This document shows positions 3,891 through 47,739 of a stretch of 64,000 nucleotides of DNA, one piece after another. This DNA comes from an uncultured Gammaproteobacteria bacterium (lineage in GTDB: Bacteria > Patescibacteriota > Patescibacteriia > UBA1558 > UBA10009), in contig CAZPMS010000001.1 in assembly GCA_964588165.1 (NCBI GenBank), forward strand, positions 164,722-228,721, given 5' to 3'. The stretch's first letter is position 1; every line of letters starts with the position of its first letter. A program made the translations under genes and the position numbers. Under the pieces are notes generated by a model. The model ran no database searches and was not told the origin of the DNA. It saw only the letters and a program-made list of their open reading frames with translations.

Positions 3891-5663
3891 TTATTTTTCA
3901 AACATAATACAACTATTATTATAAGAATTCATTATCTTTGCTCCAATATTATCAAAATCTTTAATATTTCTAACAGGATTTCTGACCCAAACACCATTTT
4001 CTCTATAATTTACCCATAATTTAAATACATTAAACTCAATCTCAAGAAAAGAATATTTAGTTTTATAAATAACCCTTTTCTTCGTAATTACTTCTTCAAC
4101 ATCTTTTATGCCTAATAAAAACCTTCTTATATTACCGAATAAATTATGAACTTCCATAATAACTCTTCTGTTAATTAATTCACCAAGCACATATTGGTCG
4201 CCGATTTTCCTCTTTAATAGTTTTCCTTTATTGATTAATCTTGAATTTACGTTAAAATTTATTTTTTCATACTTTAAATCAAAATTAAACTTAATATATC
4301 TAATTGACTCCGAATTTGAATCTAAACTTTGATTATTAAACTCATTTTTATTAATTGCAGGAATAGAACAGTATAACTTTAAATAATTTTTATAAACAAT
4401 AACTTTTTCAATAATTGACCTTATTATTTCCCTTTTTTGTTTAAAACTTAAACAGCTTAAAGAATTTTTATACTCAACTAATAATAATTTGTGAAAATTA
4501 TAACTTTTAAAATACAAATCCTTATCAATATAGCTATAAAGTGACTCTGGTCTAGTTAATAACTCTTTAACCTTATACCAAACAACATCATCAAGTATAC
4601 ATGTTCTAATTTGTATAGCTGGACATAATTTATCAGTTTTAAATTTTCTCTTATTAGTGCAAATATAATATTTAGTTCGATAAAAATGTTTTTTCTTAAA
4701 ATGGTTTTGTATTGATCTTGTATACGCGCGCCCACAAATGCCACATTTTAAAATTGAACGCAATAATGAATCACTAACTTTTTTAAAATTTTCTCTACTT
4801 TTAAATCTGCTATCTCTTATACTCTCTGCTCTAATAAAAACTTTTTTATCAATAATTTTGGGAACATTAATTTTTATCCAGTCTTCTTTCGGTCTTAAAA
4901 TTTTTCTAGCTCTAAATTTACTCCTGTCAGCATATTTCCTAAAATAAGTTTCACCAGTATACGCCTCATTTCTTAGTACGTGGTATATTGTATTCTGATC
5001 CCAAAATATTTTTTTATTTTTTTTCTTATGCGTACGCCTGTATGCATATTTTGTAGAAATTTTCATACCAATAATTGTTTTTTGTATTCTTCCTACGCCC
5101 ATACCTTTATTAATAAATAAATGATAAATTAGTTTTACTATCTCTGCTTCCTTTTTATTTATTATTAAATTTTTATTTTTTCTGTTGTAACCAAATGGGA
5201 CACTTCCGAACCAAGTACCTTTGTTCATAGATTTAATCATGCCGCCCACATTTCTTTCTTTGATAAGATTGCGTTCAAATTCAGCAAATGCTGATAATGT
5301 TGAAATAATTAATTTTCCAGTAGTTGTAGCTACTTCAAACGGCTCACTTACACTCCTTACTTCTATTCCTAAATTATTTAACTCGGCGATTAAATTTAAA
5401 AACATTATTTGATTCCGGGCTAATCTATCAATTCTATAAAAAACAAGGGCATCAAATTTTTTTTCTCTTGCTTCTTTTATTAATTGAGTTAATTGCGTTC
5501 TTTTTAATACATAGCCGCTCTCACCTTCCTCTCTAAATAATTTATAAAACTCCCAACCTTTTAATTCAATAAATTTTTTACAACTTTCAAACTGATTTTC
5601 TAAAGAAAATCCCTTAATTTGTTCGTCTGAGCTAACGCGGGTATATATTGCTGCTTTTTTCAT
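3891..5663 (-). CDS. Large serine recombinase (resolvase/invertase N-terminal catalytic domain plus recombinase domain and Cys-rich zinc ribbon)
   Basis: N-terminus MKKAAIYTRVSSDEQ carries the catalytic Ser motif of serine recombinases. 590 aa with Cys pairs (CGICG...C...C) typical of large serine recombinases/phage integrases. Confidence 0.85.
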   Translation of the reverse strand: MKKAAIYTRVSSDEQIKGFSLENQFESCKKFIELKGWEFYKLFREEGESGYVLKRTQLTQLIKEAREKKFDALVFYRIDRLARNQIMFLNLIAELNNLGIEVRSVSEPFEVATTTGKLIISTLSAFAEFERNLIKERNVGGMIKSMNKGTWFGSVPFGYNRKNKNLIINKKEAEIVKLIYHLFINKGMGVGRIQKTIIGMKISTKYAYRRTHKKKNKKIFWDQNTIYHVLRNEAYTGETYFRKYADRSKFRARKILRPKEDWIKINVPKIIDKKVFIRAESIRDSRFKSRENFKKVSDSLLRSILKCGICGRAYTRSIQNHFKKKHFYRTKYYICTNKRKFKTDKLCPAIQIRTCILDDVVWYKVKELLTRPESLYSYIDKDLYFKSYNFHKLLLVEYKNSLSCLSFKQKREIIRSIIEKVIVYKNYLKLYCSIPAINKNEFNNQSLDSNSESIRYIKFNFDLKYEKINFNVNSRLINKGKLLKRKIGDQYVLGELINRRVIMEVHNLFGNIRRFLLGIKDVEEVITKKRVIYKTKYSFLEIEFNVFKLWVNYRENGVWVRNPVRNIKDFDNIGAKIMNSYNNSCIMFEK

Positions 5664-7104: not shown

Positions 7105-7911
7105 TTACTTAATAGGAACTTCCACAATATTATAGTTTTTTTCATCGCCAATATTAACATCTATAGTACCCTTTAAAGTATGCCAGGAAACAACTACGCC
7201 AGCGCCTTTTTCGGTTTTAACGGTTGTGCCTAGTGCCGGAAATTTTTTAGCCAGCTCTTCATATATTGGCTGTTCATACCTAAGGCAACATTTTAACCTG
7301 TCACAAACTCCAGAAAGCCTTTCTGACCCCCGATGGGCCACCTGCTGGCATTTAGCAAAATCGGTGGTAACATTGCCCAGCTCTTTAAGATGAGTTCTGC
7401 AACAAAGAGTTTTTCCGCATTGGCCGATATCTCCCCTAAATTTTGCTTCATCCCTTACGCCTATTTGCTGCATCCGGATTGTTATGGAATATTTTCTGGT
7501 TAGTTCTTTAACTAGCTCCCTAAAATCTATTCTGCCATCAGCAATAAAAGCAAAAACCAATCTTTGATTATCAAAAGAAGTGTGGACATCAACTAGCTTC
7601 ATATCCATCTTATATTTTTTAATTAAACTACGGCAAAATTCTATTTTTTCCAACCTGTTTTTATTTAATTCTAAATACTTTAATTGGTCAGCGGCTGTGG
7701 CCTTTCTAATAACCGGCTTAATTTCATCTATTCCTTCCGGTTTTTGACTAAGCTCGCCCGCAGCCTTTACTTTGCCTAAATCTGTTCCTACGGTTGTTTT
7801 AAGGATAACTTCATCCCCCTTTTTTAAATCTAAAAGCCTGCCCTCACTATCCTCGGGTTTAAAATAATAACTTTGATCCCAAGGAGTAAATTGTACTTCT
7901 ATAATCTGCAT
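7105..7911 (-). CDS. PSP1/RicT (YaaT)-like Cys-rich regulatory protein
   Basis: 268 aa with a conserved Cys cluster (GQCGKTLCCRTH...CDRLKCCLRYE) resembling the PSP1 C-terminal domain of RicT-family proteins. Confidence 0.45.
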   Translation of the reverse strand: MQIIEVQFTPWDQSYYFKPEDSEGRLLDLKKGDEVILKTTVGTDLGKVKAAGELSQKPEGIDEIKPVIRKATAADQLKYLELNKNRLEKIEFCRSLIKKYKMDMKLVDVHTSFDNQRLVFAFIADGRIDFRELVKELTRKYSITIRMQQIGVRDEAKFRGDIGQCGKTLCCRTHLKELGNVTTDFAKCQQVAHRGSERLSGVCDRLKCCLRYEQPIYEELAKKFPALGTTVKTEKGAGVVVSWHTLKGTIDVNIGDEKNYNIVEVPIK

Positions 7912-7967
7912 ATATTAACAAATAAAAATTGATGAATAATGATTGATTAATTTTTAATTATTATTTT

Positions 7968-8663
7968 TTAATCATTAATAATACTTCCTAAATTCTTACC
8001 ATTTATTAATTTGACCAAATTATCTTGTTCCCATTTAATAATTCTAATCGGCAGTTTATTCTCACGGGCTAACGAAACTGCCGTAGTATCAATTACTTTA
8101 AGATCTTTCTCCAAATATTTTTGATATGAAATTTGTTTGATTTTTTTTGCTGACTTATTTTTTACTGGGTCAGCCGTATAAATGCCGTCTACTTTAGTTG
8201 CTTTTATAAAAACTTCGGCACCAACTTCTAAAGCCCGCAAAATTGCGGCCGTATCAGTTGTGAAGAAAGGATGGCCGGTTCCGCCGCCAAAAATTAAAAC
8301 TTTATTTTTCTGCCAGTCTTTTTTTACTTTGGCATAATTAAAAATAGGATATTTTGACTTTATAGAAAAGCTGGTATAAACCTGGACAGGAATTTTTGAT
8401 TTTTTTAAAAATTTTTCTAAAGGATATACATTCTTTAAAGTACCTTTTATTCCTTTTATATCCACTTCTACCCTATCCCCCTTTTTAGTATCTTTCCACC
8501 GGCTTACATTTCCGCCACCGCAAACAACGGCAACTTTAACTTTTGACTTTCTTAATTGCTTTATTTCGTCCACTATTTTTTGGACACCGGCTGAATCTAT
8601 TTTTTTACCCTTTTTTCCAAAGGATTCACCGGAAAATTTTATGAGAACTTTTTTATATTTCAT
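7968..8663 (-). CDS. pyrH: Uridylate (UMP) kinase
   Basis: KVLIKFSGESF...VAVVCGGGN amino-acid-kinase family motifs; position downstream of tsf. Confidence 0.9.
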   Translation of the reverse strand: MKYKKVLIKFSGESFGKKGKKIDSAGVQKIVDEIKQLRKSKVKVAVVCGGGNVSRWKDTKKGDRVEVDIKGIKGTLKNVYPLEKFLKKSKIPVQVYTSFSIKSKYPIFNYAKVKKDWQKNKVLIFGGGTGHPFFTTDTAAILRALEVGAEVFIKATKVDGIYTADPVKNKSAKKIKQISYQKYLEKDLKVIDTTAVSLARENKLPIRIIKWEQDNLVKLINGKNLGSIIND

Positions 8664-8679
8664 ATGGCACTAATAACCC

Positions 8680-8790
8680 ACCGATCTATCACTGATGAAG
8701 CGCTGATTAATCACTGATATTAATATCGGTGAGCCATCTGTGATATATCCGTGATAGCTCAGCGTATATCCGTGATTTATCCGTGGTACT
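8680..8790. repeat. Interspersed palindromic repeat element, copy A (inverted relative to copies B and C)
   Basis: Reverse complement of 8680-8765 is near-identical to 13270-13352 (gagctatcac(a/g)gatata...ctcaccgatattaatatcagtgattaatcagcgcttcatcagtgatagatcggtgg). The internal palindromes caccgat/atcggtg, tgattaatca and atattaatat, and three ~10-bp tatccgtgat sub-repeats, are all seen directly in the sequence. Confidence 0.8.
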
Positions 8791-10357: not shown

Positions 10358-10646
10358 AATTTTTTCCTTTCTATCAAGCTAAGCTTGATACCTCCATTCC
10401 CGCTTTCGTTCTAATGAACGCAAGGAAAATATGGGAATGTGAGAGATAGTTAATAATCATGTATCGTATATCGTTTTTCGTATATCCTTATTTTTATTGA
10501 ACTTTATGGATACACTATACACAAAATACGTTACATGAAAAGATTTTAACACAATAGCCTATTTTTGGCAAGGCTATAACCTTAGGGATTGACAAAACAA
10601 CCTTCATTTAATAACCTAAGGGCGAAAGATAAAAGCTCATTCACAT

Positions 10647-11087
10647 TTGGAGTTACAAATGATCAAGAAATTGATAGTCAGCCTTGGCTGCCTAATACTC
10701 GTTGGCCTGCTGGTAAGCCTTTTTTTCGGCTCACAAATAGAAGGAATGTATAAATTTGTAACTACTTGCTATAGCTACTTTGACGCCGAAATGCAAACCG
10801 TAATAAATGACATGGTAATCTTTGGCGCCTCAATAGCATTAATATTTGCGGCAGTAATGGCATTTATTGGTAAAATGATTAAAGGAATTATCCCTCTTGG
10901 CTACTTTTTGATTTCGACAGCCATGATATGTTTCTCTTCTGTGTTTTTAAAAGTACCCGGAGGTTCGCTGGTGATGGTCGTACTTTTGGCCTCCTTTGGT
11001 ATTTCCAGTGTTATTTCCTTCTTATTGTTCTACCTAATATTTAGAACAATACCCAAACATAAACACCAATTATTCTACCCCGCTTGA
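10647..11087 (+). CDS. Small integral membrane protein (4 predicted TM), paralog 1 of a tandem family
   Basis: 146 aa, four hydrophobic segments, C-terminal KHKHQ...P motif shared with paralogs 2 and 3; followed by a hairpin terminator. Confidence 0.5.
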   Translation: MELQMIKKLIVSLGCLILVGLLVSLFFGSQIEGMYKFVTTCYSYFDAEMQTVINDMVIFGASIALIFAAVMAFIGKMIKGIIPLGYFLISTAMICFSSVFLKVPGGSLVMVVLLASFGISSVISFLLFYLIFRTIPKHKHQLFYPA

Positions 11088-11195
11088 AACAAAACGGGGT
11101 TTTTTCTTTGTTAAATAATTGACAAAATAATCAATTATAAACTAATATACTATATAAGCATAGAACATTCACAAGATAGATAAGGAGAAGTAAAG

Positions 11196-11636
11196 ATGAG
11201 GAAACAATGGTTTAAATTCGCCTTCGTCCTTGGGATACTGGTTATAATCGGATACTTTGTGTTCTCTCCAGTCATGGAGTGGTACAATGGTTTCAGTCAA
11301 TACAAACAAACATCTGCAATTCTTATCTTAACCTCTGCGTGTATTTCTGGCTTGATCATGGGTATAATCGTCGGCCTGAACACTAAGCAAAGTGAATTCT
11401 TAAAACCTGATAAATTGATTGCTAAACTTTTTATCTGGGAAGTGTTCGGTCTTGCGATTAGCTTTATTATTATTACTGGTTTTCTTTTTTTTGTAGATCG
11501 GATTAGCGGAGCTATTGAAATAGATATTATTCACATTTCCAGCTTTTCCATTATCTACTTAACCACTTCCTCCCTGGTCTATTTGATTAAGGAAACAATG
11601 TCAAAACATCACCAACCAATACTTGACCCTGTCTGA
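11196..11636 (+). CDS. Small integral membrane protein, paralog 2
   Basis: 146 aa, same architecture, C-terminal SKHHQPILDPV. GGAGAAG RBS. Its upstream roughly 100-bp promoter/UTR is near-identical to that of paralog 3. Confidence 0.5.
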   Translation: MRKQWFKFAFVLGILVIIGYFVFSPVMEWYNGFSQYKQTSAILILTSACISGLIMGIIVGLNTKQSEFLKPDKLIAKLFIWEVFGLAISFIIITGFLFFVDRISGAIEIDIIHISSFSIIYLTTSSLVYLIKETMSKHHQPILDPV

Positions 11637-11771
11637 TCTTTTCTATCCACAAATCCCCCCGTTTGGAAATTCAAGCGGGGTTTTTTCTTTGTTAAATAAT
11701 TGACAATATAAATTTTTTATAGTTAACTATCAATATAGAACATTCACAAACGTAGTGAGAAGGAGAAAACC

Positions 11772-12191
11772 ATGTTGATCAAATGGATTATCTACTTAGC
11801 TAGCCTTTTTGCTTTATTCCTATTCAAAGATCCCATATCATCTTTTGTAATAGATTCGTATGGTGATCTTAATCAAGTAGAACAAAAATTCATAACTGAT
11901 GGTTTTATATTTTGTGCGATCATTGGCATATTTAGTGCTACACTCACCGGTTTAGCACTTATTAAACCTCTAATTGATGTAAAAAGATGCCTTTATGCTG
12001 GAATAATACTGGGCTTAATATTTGGCTTCAGCCTTGGCATGACTTTTATCTCGTCCAAACAAAGCTTTAATATTGGTTTAACCGCTGGTTCAATATATCT
12101 TATAAGCCATTTAATTATTTTCTTCTCTATTTATTTAATAAATGAAACGGTAAAACACTATCGCCATAAGGCCCAGCCATTCCTAGTCTGA
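11772..12191 (+). CDS. Small integral membrane protein, paralog 3
   Basis: 139 aa, C-terminal VKHYRHKAQPFLV; AGGAGAA RBS; own promoter and terminator. Confidence 0.5.
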   Translation: MLIKWIIYLASLFALFLFKDPISSFVIDSYGDLNQVEQKFITDGFIFCAIIGIFSATLTGLALIKPLIDVKRCLYAGIILGLIFGFSLGMTFISSKQSFNIGLTAGSIYLISHLIIFFSIYLINETVKHYRHKAQPFLV

Positions 12192-12285
12192 AAGCAGTTC
12201 TATCCACTTACAACACCCTAAGTTATACAAAACTTGGGGGTTTTTCTTTTTAAAAAAATTAAATAAGTGATATAATGAATTTTGT

Positions 12286-12681
12286 ATGAAACAATCTTTT
12301 TGGCAAAATTTGCCCATTTTAAGATTTTTAGCCGGCTTTTGGGGCTGGGTTACCATGCTCCTGTTTATTGTTGATTTTTTTAGCCACCATCTGCTTTCTG
12401 AAGGTATAACTACGGCAGCTGTAATTTATGGCGCTATTTTAGCTATGTACGCAGGCTCTAAAGAATACAAGCGTTGGCAACAAAAAAAGAACTATAAATC
12501 CGACCATTTTGGTGAACTATATATTATTACCTGGACCCTGGTAATGGTAATCTTTGTGGCTTTAACCTTTTTACTTAGCGGTTACTACAAAATCCCCGGT
12601 GAATTTCCAGCTGTTTATTTAACAGTTTTATCAGTTTTTATCCTTTCCAGGGAATCCAAATCATTTATTGCTAAAAGTTAA
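12286..12681 (+). CDS. Small integral membrane protein, a divergent fourth member of the array
   Basis: 131 aa, 3-4 TM segments, preceded by a hairpin plus T-run terminator of the previous unit. Confidence 0.4.
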   Translation: MKQSFWQNLPILRFLAGFWGWVTMLLFIVDFFSHHLLSEGITTAAVIYGAILAMYAGSKEYKRWQQKKNYKSDHFGELYIITWTLVMVIFVALTFLLSGYYKIPGEFPAVYLTVLSVFILSRESKSFIAKS

Positions 12682-12690
12682 TTATCAATA

Positions 12691-12765
12691 GCTCACCGAT
12701 ATTAATATCAGTGATTAATCAGCGCTTCATCAGTGATAGATCGGTGGTTTATCAGTGACTATAGT
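12691..12765. repeat. Interspersed palindromic repeat element, copy B (direct with copy C)
   Basis: gctcaccgatattaatatcagtgattaatcagcgcttcatcagtgatagatcggtggtttatcagt, identical over about 70 bp to 13290-13358. Confidence 0.8.
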
Positions 12766-12821: not shown

Positions 12822-13247
12822 ATGATGTCTAAAAACAAGCCTCTTTTTTTGTTGGAGGAAAAATTAACTTACAAATTAAGAGGGATTTTTATTGAAATTA
12901 GTAAACAACATGGTTGTTTATTTAAAGAAAAGGTCTATCAAAAAATAATTATTGATGAATTTCAAAATAAAAACGTTAAATTTGAATCCCAGCCAAGAAT
13001 TTCTATATATAACTTAATTACAGGTAAAGAAATTGGTTACTATTCCCCAGATTTTCTAGTAGAAAATAAAGTAATTGTCGAAATAAAAGCTCAGGGTCAA
13101 ATCTATAATAGTCATATTAATCAACTGATTAAATACTTAAATTCTACAAAATTTGAAATTGGACTAATAGTGAACTTCGGAACTCCAATGGTTCAAATTA
13201 TTAGAAAAATATTTACAAACGACAAAAAATCATTTATTCACAAATAA
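12822..13247 (+). CDS. GxxExxY-family / PD-(D/E)XK nuclease-like small protein
   Basis: HGCLFKEKVYQK (G..E..Y-like) motif plus PDFLVENKVIVEIKA (D...E.K) typical of the GxxExxY PD-(D/E)XK family. 141 aa. Flanked by direct repeat copies B and C. Confidence 0.5.
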   Translation: MMSKNKPLFLLEEKLTYKLRGIFIEISKQHGCLFKEKVYQKIIIDEFQNKNVKFESQPRISIYNLITGKEIGYYSPDFLVENKVIVEIKAQGQIYNSHINQLIKYLNSTKFEIGLIVNFGTPMVQIIRKIFTNDKKSFIHK

Positions 13248-13358
13248 ATCACAGATATTCACGGAGCTATCACAGATATACCACAGATGGCTCACCGATA
13301 TTAATATCAGTGATTAATCAGCGCTTCATCAGTGATAGATCGGTGGTTTATCAGTAGT
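13247..13358. repeat. Interspersed palindromic repeat element, copy C. It includes three atcacagata sub-repeats and lies just 5' of the rpmE promoter.
   Basis: Sequence identity to copy B and to the reverse complement of copy A. A TTGACA-17-TAGAAT promoter for rpmE follows at about 13355-13385. Confidence 0.8.
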
Positions 13359-46656: not shown

Positions 46657-46947
46657 ATGACATTAAATAATACTTTTAAGGCTTTATCTGACCCTACCCG
46701 CAGGAAAATCTTGGAACTTCTGAAAAAAAAAGATATGTCGGCCGGCGCTATTGCCGAGCATTTTAAGATTACCCTACCCTCTTTAACCCACCATTTTAAT
46801 ATTTTAAAGCAGGCTGATTTAATTACCCAAGAAAGGCAGGGCCAACAAATAATCTATTCACTAAACTTAACTGTTTTAGATGAATTAATTGATAAATATT
46901 TTAATTTGTTTTCCGCCAAAGGCGGATCGGCCTCTGGTCGAAAATAA
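46657..46947 (+). CDS. ArsR/SmtB-family transcriptional regulator (SdpR-like)
   Basis: LSDPTRRKILELL...AIAEHFKITLPSLTHHFNILKQADL winged-HTH signature. Confidence 0.75.
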   Translation: MTLNNTFKALSDPTRRKILELLKKKDMSAGAIAEHFKITLPSLTHHFNILKQADLITQERQGQQIIYSLNLTVLDELIDKYFNLFSAKGGSASGRK

Positions 46948-46951
46948 TAAA

Positions 46952-47075
46952 AGCCTTGCCCCACTGTCATTGCGAGGAGCACTAGCGACGAAGCAATCTC
47001 ACACATTTCTAGCTAAAACAAATTAGATTGCCACACTCCTTTCAGTCGCTCGCAATGACCGCTAGGCAAGGCTTA
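46952..47075. repeat. Long imperfect palindrome related to the GTCATTSYGAG family (copy 3)
   Basis: gccttgcc..tgtcattgcgag... | ...ctcgcaatgacc..ggcaaggc; about 120 bp of dyad symmetry between the regulator and the SdpI-like gene. Confidence 0.6.
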
Positions 47076-47091
47076 CCTAACAACTAACTAT

Positions 47092-47739
47092 ATGAAATTC
47101 ACATTCAAAACCGAAATTATTCCCATTCTAATTATTTTAATTTCAATTGGACTGGGGTTCTATTTCTATTCTGCCTTCCCTGATACTGTCCCTGTTCATT
47201 GGGGCGTAAATGGTGAAGTTGATAGATGGGGATCTAAATTTGAAGGAGCCTGGCTAATGCCGATGATTGCAGTTGGCATGTATGTTTTATTTTTGGTGCT
47301 GCCACTGATTGACCCGAAAAAAGAAAAATACCAGCAATTTTTTAAAGTCTATTTGATGTTTAGGACGTTGATACTGTTGATGATGTTCGGCATCTACTTA
47401 ATAGCTTCCTTAAACACTTTAGGCTACAACGTTAGGGTAGAGGTTTGGATACCGGTAGCGATTGGACTTTTGTTTTTGATAATGGGCAACTACATGGGCA
47501 AACTTAAAGCCAATTGGTTTATGGGCATTAGAACTCCTTGGACCTTATCTTCTGATGAAGTTTGGAATAAAACCCATAGGCTTGGCGGCAAAATGTTTAT
47601 GATCCTTGGTGTGTTGTTGATGATCACTCCCCTTCTGCCTTACAGTAATATATTTTTGACTGTGGTAATGCCGGTTTTAATTGTAGGGCTGGTGCCGGTT
47701 GTTTATTCTTTTGTTCTCTATAAAAAAATTAAGAAATAA
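47092..47739 (+). CDS. SdpI/YhfL-family membrane protein (DUF1648 plus SdpI immunity-like domain)
   Basis: VPVHWGVNGEVDRWGSK matches the DUF1648 motif; 6 TM segments; paired with an ArsR-type regulator as in sdpR-sdpI. Confidence 0.6.
   Translation: MKFTFKTEIIPILIILISIGLGFYFYSAFPDTVPVHWGVNGEVDRWGSKFEGAWLMPMIAVGMYVLFLVLPLIDPKKEKYQQFFKVYLMFRTLILLMMFGIYLIASLNTLGYNVRVEVWIPVAIGLLFLIMGNYMGKLKANWFMGIRTPWTLSSDEVWNKTHRLGGKMFMILGVLLMITPLLPYSNIFLTVVMPVLIVGLVPVVYSFVLYKKIKK

Follow-up and report, generated by a model that had tools for sequence, protein, structure and literature searches.

Why would a row of small membrane-protein genes keep nearly the same regulatory DNA while their coding regions have diverged? 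The question is raised by four consecutive plus-strand genes, here called g1, g2, g3 and g4 (142, 146, 139 and 131 amino acids, aa), located in a 64,000-nucleotide stretch of contig CAZPMS010000001.1 from an uncultured bacterium which GTDB places in the Patescibacteriota; this whole stretch is what we call the window. Small membrane proteins without annotation are numerous in uncultured ultra-small bacteria, and one can seldom tell which are important. A first-pass annotation had described the four genes as a cassette-like tandem array of paralogs with four transmembrane (TM) segments, each with its own duplicated promoter and terminator, and had likened it to cassettes of immunity or variable-surface proteins. 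The feature is real and this description was mostly right, but the paralogs are three and not four, the similarity upstream of them is a mosaic, and the fourth gene is an unrelated neighbor.

We found that g1, g2 and g3 are paralogs belonging to a rare family, that each of them lies between a promoter-like region and a terminator of its own, that the block they form is an insertion relative to related genomes, and that the flanks of the genes are better conserved than their coding regions. The locus thus offers a clean case among small membrane proteins, with a family that is real, as its motifs and its homologs in at least two other lineages show, and that is expanded as whole transcription units. 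The expansion of a rare orphan membrane-protein family in this form is what is new here; it is an incremental finding and brings no new principle.

The repeated unit and its conserved flanks

As delimited here, the units span about 10589-11118, 11119-11699 and 11700-12265, and they are a head-to-tail triplication of promoter, leader, coding region and terminator (Table 1). Each would begin with a sigma-70-type TTGACA promoter behind an A/T-rich, UP-element-like stretch, continue with an unstructured leader of about 45-60 nt holding a CATTCACA box and a GGAG ribosome-binding site, go on to a coding region of 139-146 aa for a membrane protein predicted to have four TM segments and both termini inside (N-in/C-in), and close with its own intrinsic terminator. 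Public gene calls agree with the four open reading frames (ORFs). For g1, a TTG start at 10647 is another option and would give 146 aa; the ATG is preferred, on the grounds that GGAG lies 6 nt upstream of it and that the public gene call agrees.

Several observations support this delimitation. The pattern of TTGACA followed after 35-45 nt by CATTCACA is present in exactly three copies in the 64 kb, upstream of g1, g2 and g3, for an expected number of 0. The core promoters of units 1 and 2 align with a z-score of 4.6, reached in 0 of 500 shuffles, and the core promoter and the 8-nt CATTCACA are all that the upstream region of g1 has in common with the other units. The GC hairpins followed by a U-tract that had been announced after g1, g2 and g3 are all there and are stabler than shuffled sequence (z from -3.1 to -3.6), the first one having a 5' arm that reaches back over the stop codon of g1 and the codons just before it. 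The third terminator together with the next ~20 nt aligns to the modules formed by the first and second terminators upstream of units 2 and 3 (z of 6.1 and 4.7), so that the stretch 12212-12265 is homologous to both modules and forms the right end of the triplicated unit. The claim that every gene has its own duplicated promoter and terminator is therefore borne out for g1-g3; it does not extend to g4, which has a different promoter and is not followed by a canonical terminator.

Table 1. Coordinates of genes and predicted regulatory elements of the array and its borders in the window (ΔG, predicted folding free energy; z, z-score against shuffled sequence).
Feature	Position	Strand	Description
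rpsB promoter-like site	10543-10571	-	TTGCCA, 17 nt, TG-n-TAAAAT (consensus scan); left boundary of the ancestral gap between divergent promoters
Unit 1 promoter and leader	10589-10658	+	-35 TTGACA 10589-10594; CATTCACA 10638-10645; GGAG 10649-10652
g1	10659-11087	+	142 aa, four TM, WYNG/YLIKET orphan family
Terminator T1	11077-11105	+	Hairpin 11077-11100 and U-tract; ΔG -10.3 kcal/mol, z -3.1
Block A, copy 1	11092-11130	+	Terminator 3' arm, T-run, CTTTGTTAAATAA, -35 TTGACA 11119-11124
Unit 2 candidate -10, TAATAT	11143-11148	+	18 nt after TTGACA; consensus scan 10/12
Leader box B, copy 1, ATAGAACATTCACAA	11160-11174	+	15/15 identical to 11735-11749
g2	11196-11636	+	146 aa, four-TM family member; GGAG at 11184-11187
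3' box TTCTATCCAC, copy 1	11641-11650	+	Starts 5 nt after g2 stop
Terminator T2	11657-11686	+	Hairpin 11657-11680 and U-tract; ΔG -15.8 kcal/mol, z -3.5
Block A, copy 2	11673-11711	+	-35 TTGACA 11700-11705; 37/39 identical to copy 1
Leader box B, copy 2, ATAGAACATTCACAA	11735-11749	+	15/15 identical to copy 1
g3	11772-12191	+	139 aa, four-TM family member; AAGGAGAA at 11760-11767
3' box TTCTATCCAC, copy 2	12198-12207	+	Starts 7 nt after g3 stop
Terminator T3 and A/T-rich tail	12212-12265	+	Hairpin 12212-12242, U-tract; ΔG -13.6 kcal/mol, z -3.6
g4 promoter, extended -10 TGATATAAT	12268-12276	+	Consensus scan; 9 nt before ATG
g4	12286-12681	+	131 aa, four-helix membrane protein; outside the array; syntenic between rpsB and rpmE

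The regions upstream of g2 and g3 had been described as near-identical over about 100 bp. Their similarity is indeed far above chance, but it is really a mosaic of blocks, with 22-28 nt that show no conservation lying between block A and box B. It is not limited to the terminator of the preceding unit, since it runs on through the -35 element to the separate 15-nt leader box. The 20-mer CTTTGTTAAATAATTGACAA of block A has two copies in the 64 kb, for 0.02 expected, and the 10-mer TTCTATCCAC also has two, for 0.11 expected, both of them just past the stop codons of g2 and g3; a third exact copy of box B is absent from the window. A wider regulon was considered and rejected: the rest of the 64 kb holds no further copy of block A or box B, and searches for the flank motifs in IMG/VR and in the JGI metagenomes returned the known contig only.

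The contrast between flanks and coding regions is strong. The intergenic regions of g2 and g3 have an uninterrupted run of 31 identical nt in common, where 500 shuffles never gave a run longer than 10, and the identity of the flank blocks is 95%, versus 42-47% nucleotide identity for the codon-aligned coding regions of g1-g3. At third positions identity falls to 34-43%, which is not far above the expectation from base composition and would place the genes near synonymous saturation. Neutral intergenic DNA of equal age could not retain 31 identical bases, and with coding regions so close to saturation it follows that selection, short-tract gene conversion, or both hold the blocks in place. These blocks coincide with the terminator arm, the U-tract, the position of the UP element, the -35 element, the leader box, the Shine-Dalgarno sequence and the 3' box, a pattern which looks like a functional footprint. 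The tandem, cassette-like picture of conserved regulatory flanks around divergent ORFs for small membrane proteins thus holds for three genes; such an excess of flank over coding conservation is unusual, yet it has precedents.

The conserved untranslated block had also been proposed as a regulator or RNA binding site, and the RNA part of this proposal is weakened by our results. The leaders are not more structured than shuffled sequence (z of the minimum free energy of +1.6 for g2 and +0.4 for g3), and Rfam scans of the leaders, at gathering thresholds and at E≤1, returned nothing, and a structured cis-regulatory RNA there was rejected on these grounds. Because the leaders are unstructured and Rfam is empty, box B, if it is regulatory, is more likely to be bound by a protein than to act as an RNA element.

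A further symmetry was noted around g2 and g3. Their 5' box starts with ATAGAA (11160-11165 and 11735-11740) and their 3' box with TTCTAT (11641-11646 and 12198-12203), which are exact reverse complements, and both boxes run on into a (T/C)CAC motif. These boxes may serve for pairing between the 5' and 3' ends of the mRNA, may be a repeated protein-binding site, or may be a recombination scar.

The protein family and its insertion site

The four genes do form a row of small four-TM ORFs of 131-146 aa, but only g1, g2 and g3 are paralogs. Smith-Waterman comparisons among these three give z-scores of 3.3-3.9, with scores reached in 0 or 1 of 300 composition-preserving shuffles, and their protein identity over full-length alignments is 22-31% (22% for g2 versus g3), in agreement with the earlier estimate of about 25%. 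On these values they are weak yet real paralogs. When the hidden Markov model (HMM) of the family was run with filters off against all 444 ORFs in the window and three other loci, it matched the six family members only, namely g1-g3 and the distant homologs P0014, P0015 and P0016.

Each of the three proteins has four hydrophobic segments, with lysine and arginine concentrated at the N-terminus, in the middle loop and in the C-terminal tail, and the topology predicted from this is N-in/C-in, the two external loops being short (roughly 10-28 residues). The AlphaFold2 (AF2) model of g2 consists of four long helices of modest confidence (predicted local distance difference test, pLDDT, of 68). The better-conserved motifs of the family are W-Y-N/H-G just after TM1, and Y/W-L-I-K/R-E-T/I closing TM4 and followed by a basic tail; in g1 and g3 the first motif is degenerate (CYSY and SYGD). 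With the predicted topology, W-Y-N-G would be in the first external loop, and Y-L-I-K-E-T and the basic or histidine-rich tail would face the cytoplasm at the end of TM4. The K-H-x-H...P tail reported at first is indeed seen in g1-g3 (PKHKH..P, SKHHQP and VKHYRHK..P), but it is not family-wide, as P0014 and P0016 lack it. Defined by four TM segments with N-in/C-in topology, the TM1 and TM4 motifs and a basic tail, the family includes g1, g2, g3, P0014, P0015 and P0016, and it does not include g4.

This family is real, because the homologs found outside the window share both the WYNG and the YLIKET motif, and extremely rare. A HMMER search of 1.84 billion representative proteins retrieved six proteins at E≤1e-3, including g1-g3, the three outsiders having E-values of 2e-5 to 1e-4. 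A word-indexed search of 5.8 billion proteins found the window's own genes and P0016 only, pattern scans of 185,579 GTDB species-representative genomes, of JGI metagenomes and of IMG/VR gave no further relatives, and tblastn against plasmid and phage collections gave no match. In scans of Pfam, NCBIfam, PHROGs and PADLOC no match passed the threshold, whether for g1-g4 or the distant homologs, and in these scans no housekeeping or otherwise characterized family was matched. The first-pass annotation had named such a match, together with an upstream similarity confined to the preceding terminator, as what would refute it, and neither was seen. For g1-g3 the best Pfam E-value was 0.046 or worse, always under the gathering score, and the NCBIfam E-value 0.019 or worse. 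Likewise, a PDB profile search of g1-g3 found no match, Foldseek with the AF2 models of g2 and g4 found none in the PDB at E≤0.001, and g1-g3 had no significant profile match to characterized small four-TM families (SMR/EmrE, LrgA, PnuC, ECF S-components and similar).

The distant homologs turned up as single genes on their contigs, two of which are very short, or possibly a pair. P0016 (locus L016) and P0014 (loci L017 and L033, on the same contig) are 33% identical in protein, and their genes have about 240 nt of common upstream DNA of ~88% identity, with a TTGACA-17-TATATT promoter and a long leader, as well as a conserved downstream flank. The pattern of conserved flanks and divergent coding regions thus recurs in two of the three distant homologs. 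The 3' end of L016 is the same as the 5' start of L033, and P0016 and P0014 may be tandem neighbors in one genome. The upstream region of g2 aligns with that of L016 with a z-score of 4.4 (1.2 for g3 and 0.6 for g1; 15 comparisons with mononucleotide shuffles), and a promoter and leader conserved across lineages would be only a lead.

At locus L033 (JGI Ga0208375_1005592), P0014 ends a run of unrelated genes for restriction-modification, NUDIX, DUF2726, aldo-keto reductase and queuosine salvage proteins. The gene junctions contain three 186-nt repeats (814-999, 2588-2773 and 7481-7666) that are 90-96% identical, together with other shared blocks, and a XerA-type gene called 'tyrosine recombinase/integron integrase' (7726-8595; NF040815, 248 bits for a cut-off of 220) adjoins the run and is oriented divergently from it. 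This run looks like an integron-like or rAID-like array, and the position of P0014 at the end of such a run, which itself adjoins the XerA-type recombinase, suggests that the family to which g1-g3 belong is able to travel as a cassette. Within L033 1-9230, the flanks of the DUF2726 gene are nearly the same as those of the NUDIX gene, and CTAAC and GTTGGG motifs in the junctions recall the core sites of integrons. At 895-934, L016 presents an 'empty site', CACCTAAC|TGTCCAGCG, where L033 (1-36 and 819-1005) carries the GC-rich 186-nt repeat, which suggests that this repeat is itself an insertable element.

The gene g4 has a different history. Compared with it, g1 and g3 give z-scores of -0.6 and 0.8, and g2 a marginal 3.0 that was reached in 4 of 300 shuffles; hhalign profile-profile comparison of the g4 family with the g1-g3 family gives a probability of 0.1%, and the g1-g3 HMM does not match g4 even with filters off and E up to 10. 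It has orthologs of its own, 54-70% identical, and as judged from the g4 ortholog only, the closest named relative is a Candidatus Komeilibacteria metagenome-assembled genome (MAG). On every contig of the relatives that shows both flanks, the order is rpsB (minus strand), g4, rpmE, prfA with nothing between, the exception being one distant Komeilibacteria MAG with a differing context. The AF2 model of g4 is a four-helix bundle with a pLDDT of 77. The hhalign result, the missing HMM match, the orthologs and the conserved synteny exclude g4 as a fourth paralog and as the gene from which the array arose. It is thus an unrelated, ancestral and syntenic gene with its own conserved promoter, and the idea that it is the fourth member of the array had to be abandoned.

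That promoter also sets g4 apart from the units. A TG(A/G)TATAAT element lies 7 nt before the ATG in 8 of the 10 loci orthologous to g4, and because the extended -10 sits 7-9 nt before the ATG with no Shine-Dalgarno sequence, the g4 mRNA is predicted to be leaderless or near-leaderless, and leaderless in most relatives. The same arrangement, 7-9 nt before the ATG with no Shine-Dalgarno, was seen in the window (12268-12288) and in L004, L008, L009 and L011-L015. In the relatives, a TTGACA promoter for rpmE overlaps or abuts the g4 stop codon.

The comparison with the relatives also locates the array. Their gap between the -35 element of rpsB and the g4 promoter is only ~10-35 nt long, and the motif TTTTGGCAAG of the rpsB promoter-like site is kept upstream of their g4 orthologs, while in the window the same gap holds ~1.7 kb with g1-g3. 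Because g4 is ancestral between rpsB and rpmE and the relatives have nothing between, the g1-g3 block is a lineage-specific insertion into the short divergent promoter gap of rpsB and g4.

Possible functions of the array

We propose that one full autonomous transcription unit was tandemly triplicated, in this lineage specifically, within the rpsB/g4 gap. The genes g1, g2 and g3 would be transcribed separately, from the promoter to the terminator that each unit possesses, and would probably be co-regulated through identical cis-elements, while their coding regions diverged to near-saturation and the regulatory blocks were held by purifying selection or short-patch gene conversion. The paralogs would then be diversified versions of one membrane-embedded function, each of them perhaps protecting against, or binding, a different variant of a membrane-acting partner, as in strings of non-identical immunity paralogs. 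The anatomical and evolutionary part of this proposal we consider highly probable, and the immunity-like function, which is argued by analogy, a tentative idea that we rather doubt; the proposal taken as a whole, with co-regulated autonomous units and diversified proteins of immunity-like role, seems to us evenly balanced between right and wrong.

Known systems provide partial models. In Firmicutes, strings of esaG, tsaI or tipC genes are found by type VII secretion system toxin genes, in 2-16 copies that vary between strains, and the esaG strings have intergenic regions of comparable length whose sequences closely resemble one another (Garrett et al. 2022, PMC9484751). Like these strings, g1-g3 are tandem, divergent and non-identical paralogs separated by conserved intergenic DNA; unlike them, they number three, show no strain variation, have no toxin or secretion system beside them in the Pfam lists that cover most of their window, and are related in sequence neither to DUF443/TsaI nor to any other Pfam family. 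The immunity protein PmiA has ~137 aa and four TM helices, with short segments in the periplasm and the C-terminus in the cytoplasm, its gene is paired with a colicin M-like bacteriocin gene, and the families of the PmiA/BmiA type share no sequence relationship with one another (Ghequire et al. 2017, PMC5277000). The resemblance of g1-g3 to PmiA, in size and in N-in/C-in four-TM topology, is one of shape only, and they differ from PmiA and BmiA in having no bacteriocin partner in the window and no detectable homology. Finally, an ordinary tandem duplication would also copy a whole unit head to tail in the base composition of the host, as is the case here, but the non-coding DNA of the array is better conserved than the coding DNA, which is the reverse of the usual pattern.

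A number of observations weigh against our proposal. No toxin, bacteriocin or secretion gene was found in the Pfam lists covering ~1.2-21.6, 25.8-43.6 and 45.6-63.6 kb of the window, although a neighboring toxin or bacteriocin gene had been named as something to look for, and g1-g3 have no homology to known immunity, defense, holin or transporter families. The -10 elements of units 1 and 3 are poor or ambiguous, and the promoters, the transcription start sites and the co-regulation of the three units are predictions from sequence. Public contigs of the organism are 99.8-100% identical and have an equal number and content of units, and the single strain variant (L021, SUTE22-1), with three single-nucleotide polymorphisms (SNPs) at 11596, 11598 and 11699, is too little to gauge diversifying selection. 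In addition, small helical membrane proteins that diverge fast because constraint on them is relaxed would show an equal coding pattern without any arms race. The comparison with immunity or variable-surface cassettes hence stays an analogy, with no toxin, bacteriocin, secretion or recombinase partner linked in the window, and a role as variable surface antigens is made less plausible by the short predicted external loops.

A serious rival, though in our judgment an unlikely one, is a fixed hetero-oligomeric membrane complex such as a small channel, a transporter or an anchor, of which g1-g3 would be the subunits, with identical promoters balancing their expression and divergence reflecting subfunctionalization. 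The three proteins are alike in topology, size and cis-elements, motifs are conserved on both faces of the membrane, every contig sampled carries the array in one unchanging form, and there is no toxin partner nearby. Subunits are, however, usually co-transcribed, and here each gene has its own terminator; moreover the distant homologs do not come as a fixed trio, and no transporter or channel family or fold was matched.

Less likely again, and rather improbable in our view, is that the conservation of the flanks has no regulatory meaning and results from recent gene conversion or unequal crossing-over in an old, drifting duplication of a dispensable protein. In its favor, a perfect run of 31 nt exceeds typical selective footprints, and divergence has gone much further in the flank of unit 1 than in the flanks of units 2 and 3. 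It does not account well for conservation in discrete blocks on functional elements with unconserved spacers between them, nor for the fact that even unit 1, diverged as it is, keeps CATTCACA about as far from TTGACA as the other units do, and the proteins retain family-wide motifs common to distant homologs.

The flanks could also be recombination scaffolds, beyond any role in regulation, in which case the units would be site-specific recombination cassettes of integron-like or rAID-like type; we hold this to be quite improbable for g1-g3. In rAID-1 arrays, small genes are parted by repetitive intergenic sequences (Ross et al., bioRxiv 10.1101/471110), and the present array shares with them and with integrons its small genes and repeated intergenic DNA. 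P0014 at the edge of the repeat-separated run of L033, a run that adjoins the XerA-type integrase, speaks for such an origin, as do the boxes that bracket g2 and g3, ATAGAA-CATTCAC on the 5' side and TTCTAT-CCAC on the 3' side, with a 6-nt inverted repeat, and the GTTAAAT of block A, which fits the integron core GTTRRRY. The array itself has neither an adjacent tyrosine recombinase nor an attC-like site: the hairpins are plain GC stems with U-tracts, and GTTAAAT lies 3' of the hairpin without a complementary RYYYAAC. The Pfam lists, which extend over most of the window, show no recombinase partner linked to the array, the only recombinase being a serine recombinase ~5 kb off, across core genes that are syntenic in the relatives. 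Beside the array there is no IntI-type tyrosine recombinase with an attI site, as an integron would have, and the neighbors of the array are rpsB, tsf, pyrH, g4, a GxxExxY gene, rpmE and prfA. Each unit carries its own promoter and terminator, unlike the promoterless cassettes of integrons, the cargos are all paralogs, as duplication rather than capture predicts, and there is no population variation. As for holin-like or membrane-permeabilizing proteins tightly controlled by the shared leader box, which small size, four TM segments, a charged C-terminal tail and a weak match of P0016 to phrog_198 (E 0.048) might evoke, they are very improbable, given that this match is not significant, that g1-g3 have no PHROG match at all, that no endolysin or phage gene is adjacent and no phage or viral collection gave a match, and that three copies beside ribosomal-protein genes do not make a lysis-cassette context.

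Returning to the proposal of triplicated autonomous units, its practical content is that a small, diversified and possibly protective repertoire of membrane proteins would be driven by a single regulator box (CATTCACA) together with a single strong promoter, an idea which can be tested. If the immunity-like reading is true, it would point to membrane-targeting antagonism in, or against, these organisms; if it is not, the locus is a well-documented tandem duplication in which regulatory DNA outlasted coding sequence. A bolder extension, to which we give little credence, would see in g1-g3 and their three homologs an undescribed class of promoter-to-terminator membrane-protein cassettes of ultra-small bacteria similar to the candidate phyla radiation (CPR-like), with flanks serving both as regulatory DNA and as recombination scaffolds, and with a repertoire used for immunity or partner recognition. 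Divergent coding alleles could then be duplicated, swapped or captured, for instance into the XerA-type array of L033, and would provide a diversifiable membrane repertoire to organisms living attached to other cells.

Genomic neighborhood and strain variation

Upstream of the array lie rpsB, tsf and pyrH on the minus strand, and downstream of g4 the order is a GxxExxY/PD-(D/E)XK gene, rpmE, prfA and prmC. The GC content of the window is 35%, and its sequence is represented in groundwater-type metagenome assemblies. Since the array does not depart in GC content from the mean of the genome, a recent foreign acquisition judged by composition was rejected.

Strain-level variation in the array was sought and discarded, as 12 extra contigs all had the same sequence. 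Several contigs break in block A, at their 3' ends (L026, L028, L031 and L032) or at their 5' ends (L022 and L024); this is an assembly effect caused by the repeat, easily mistaken for structural variation. In L021, two of the changes are adjacent and non-synonymous (T134R and M135L in g2, directly past YLIKET), and the third is immediately 5' of the TTGACA of unit 3.

About 35 kb from the array, at ~46657-47739, a membrane protein of 215 aa with DUF1648 and SdpI domains is encoded beside an ArsR/HTH_5 regulator. The two resemble the SdpI/SdpR immunity-signaling pair, and no link to g1-g3 was found.

The GxxExxY/PD-(D/E)XK gene (12822-13247; TIGR04256, 96 bits) is bracketed by 69-nt direct repeats (12688-12756 and 13287-13355) that are 99% identical, and an inverted copy of the flanking repeat, 117 nt long and 91% identical, lies between pyrH and tsf at 8669-8785. 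Because the relatives carry rpmE directly after g4, this gene would be a second lineage-specific insertion, on a repeat resembling a miniature inverted-repeat transposable element. The serine recombinase mentioned above (590 aa, 3891-5663, minus strand) is a large one with Resolvase, Recombinase and zinc-ribbon domains, CcrB/XisF-like though below all NCBIfam cut-offs. It adjoins hydrolase and methyltransferase genes, and there may be an integrated element here, upstream of the gene gap.

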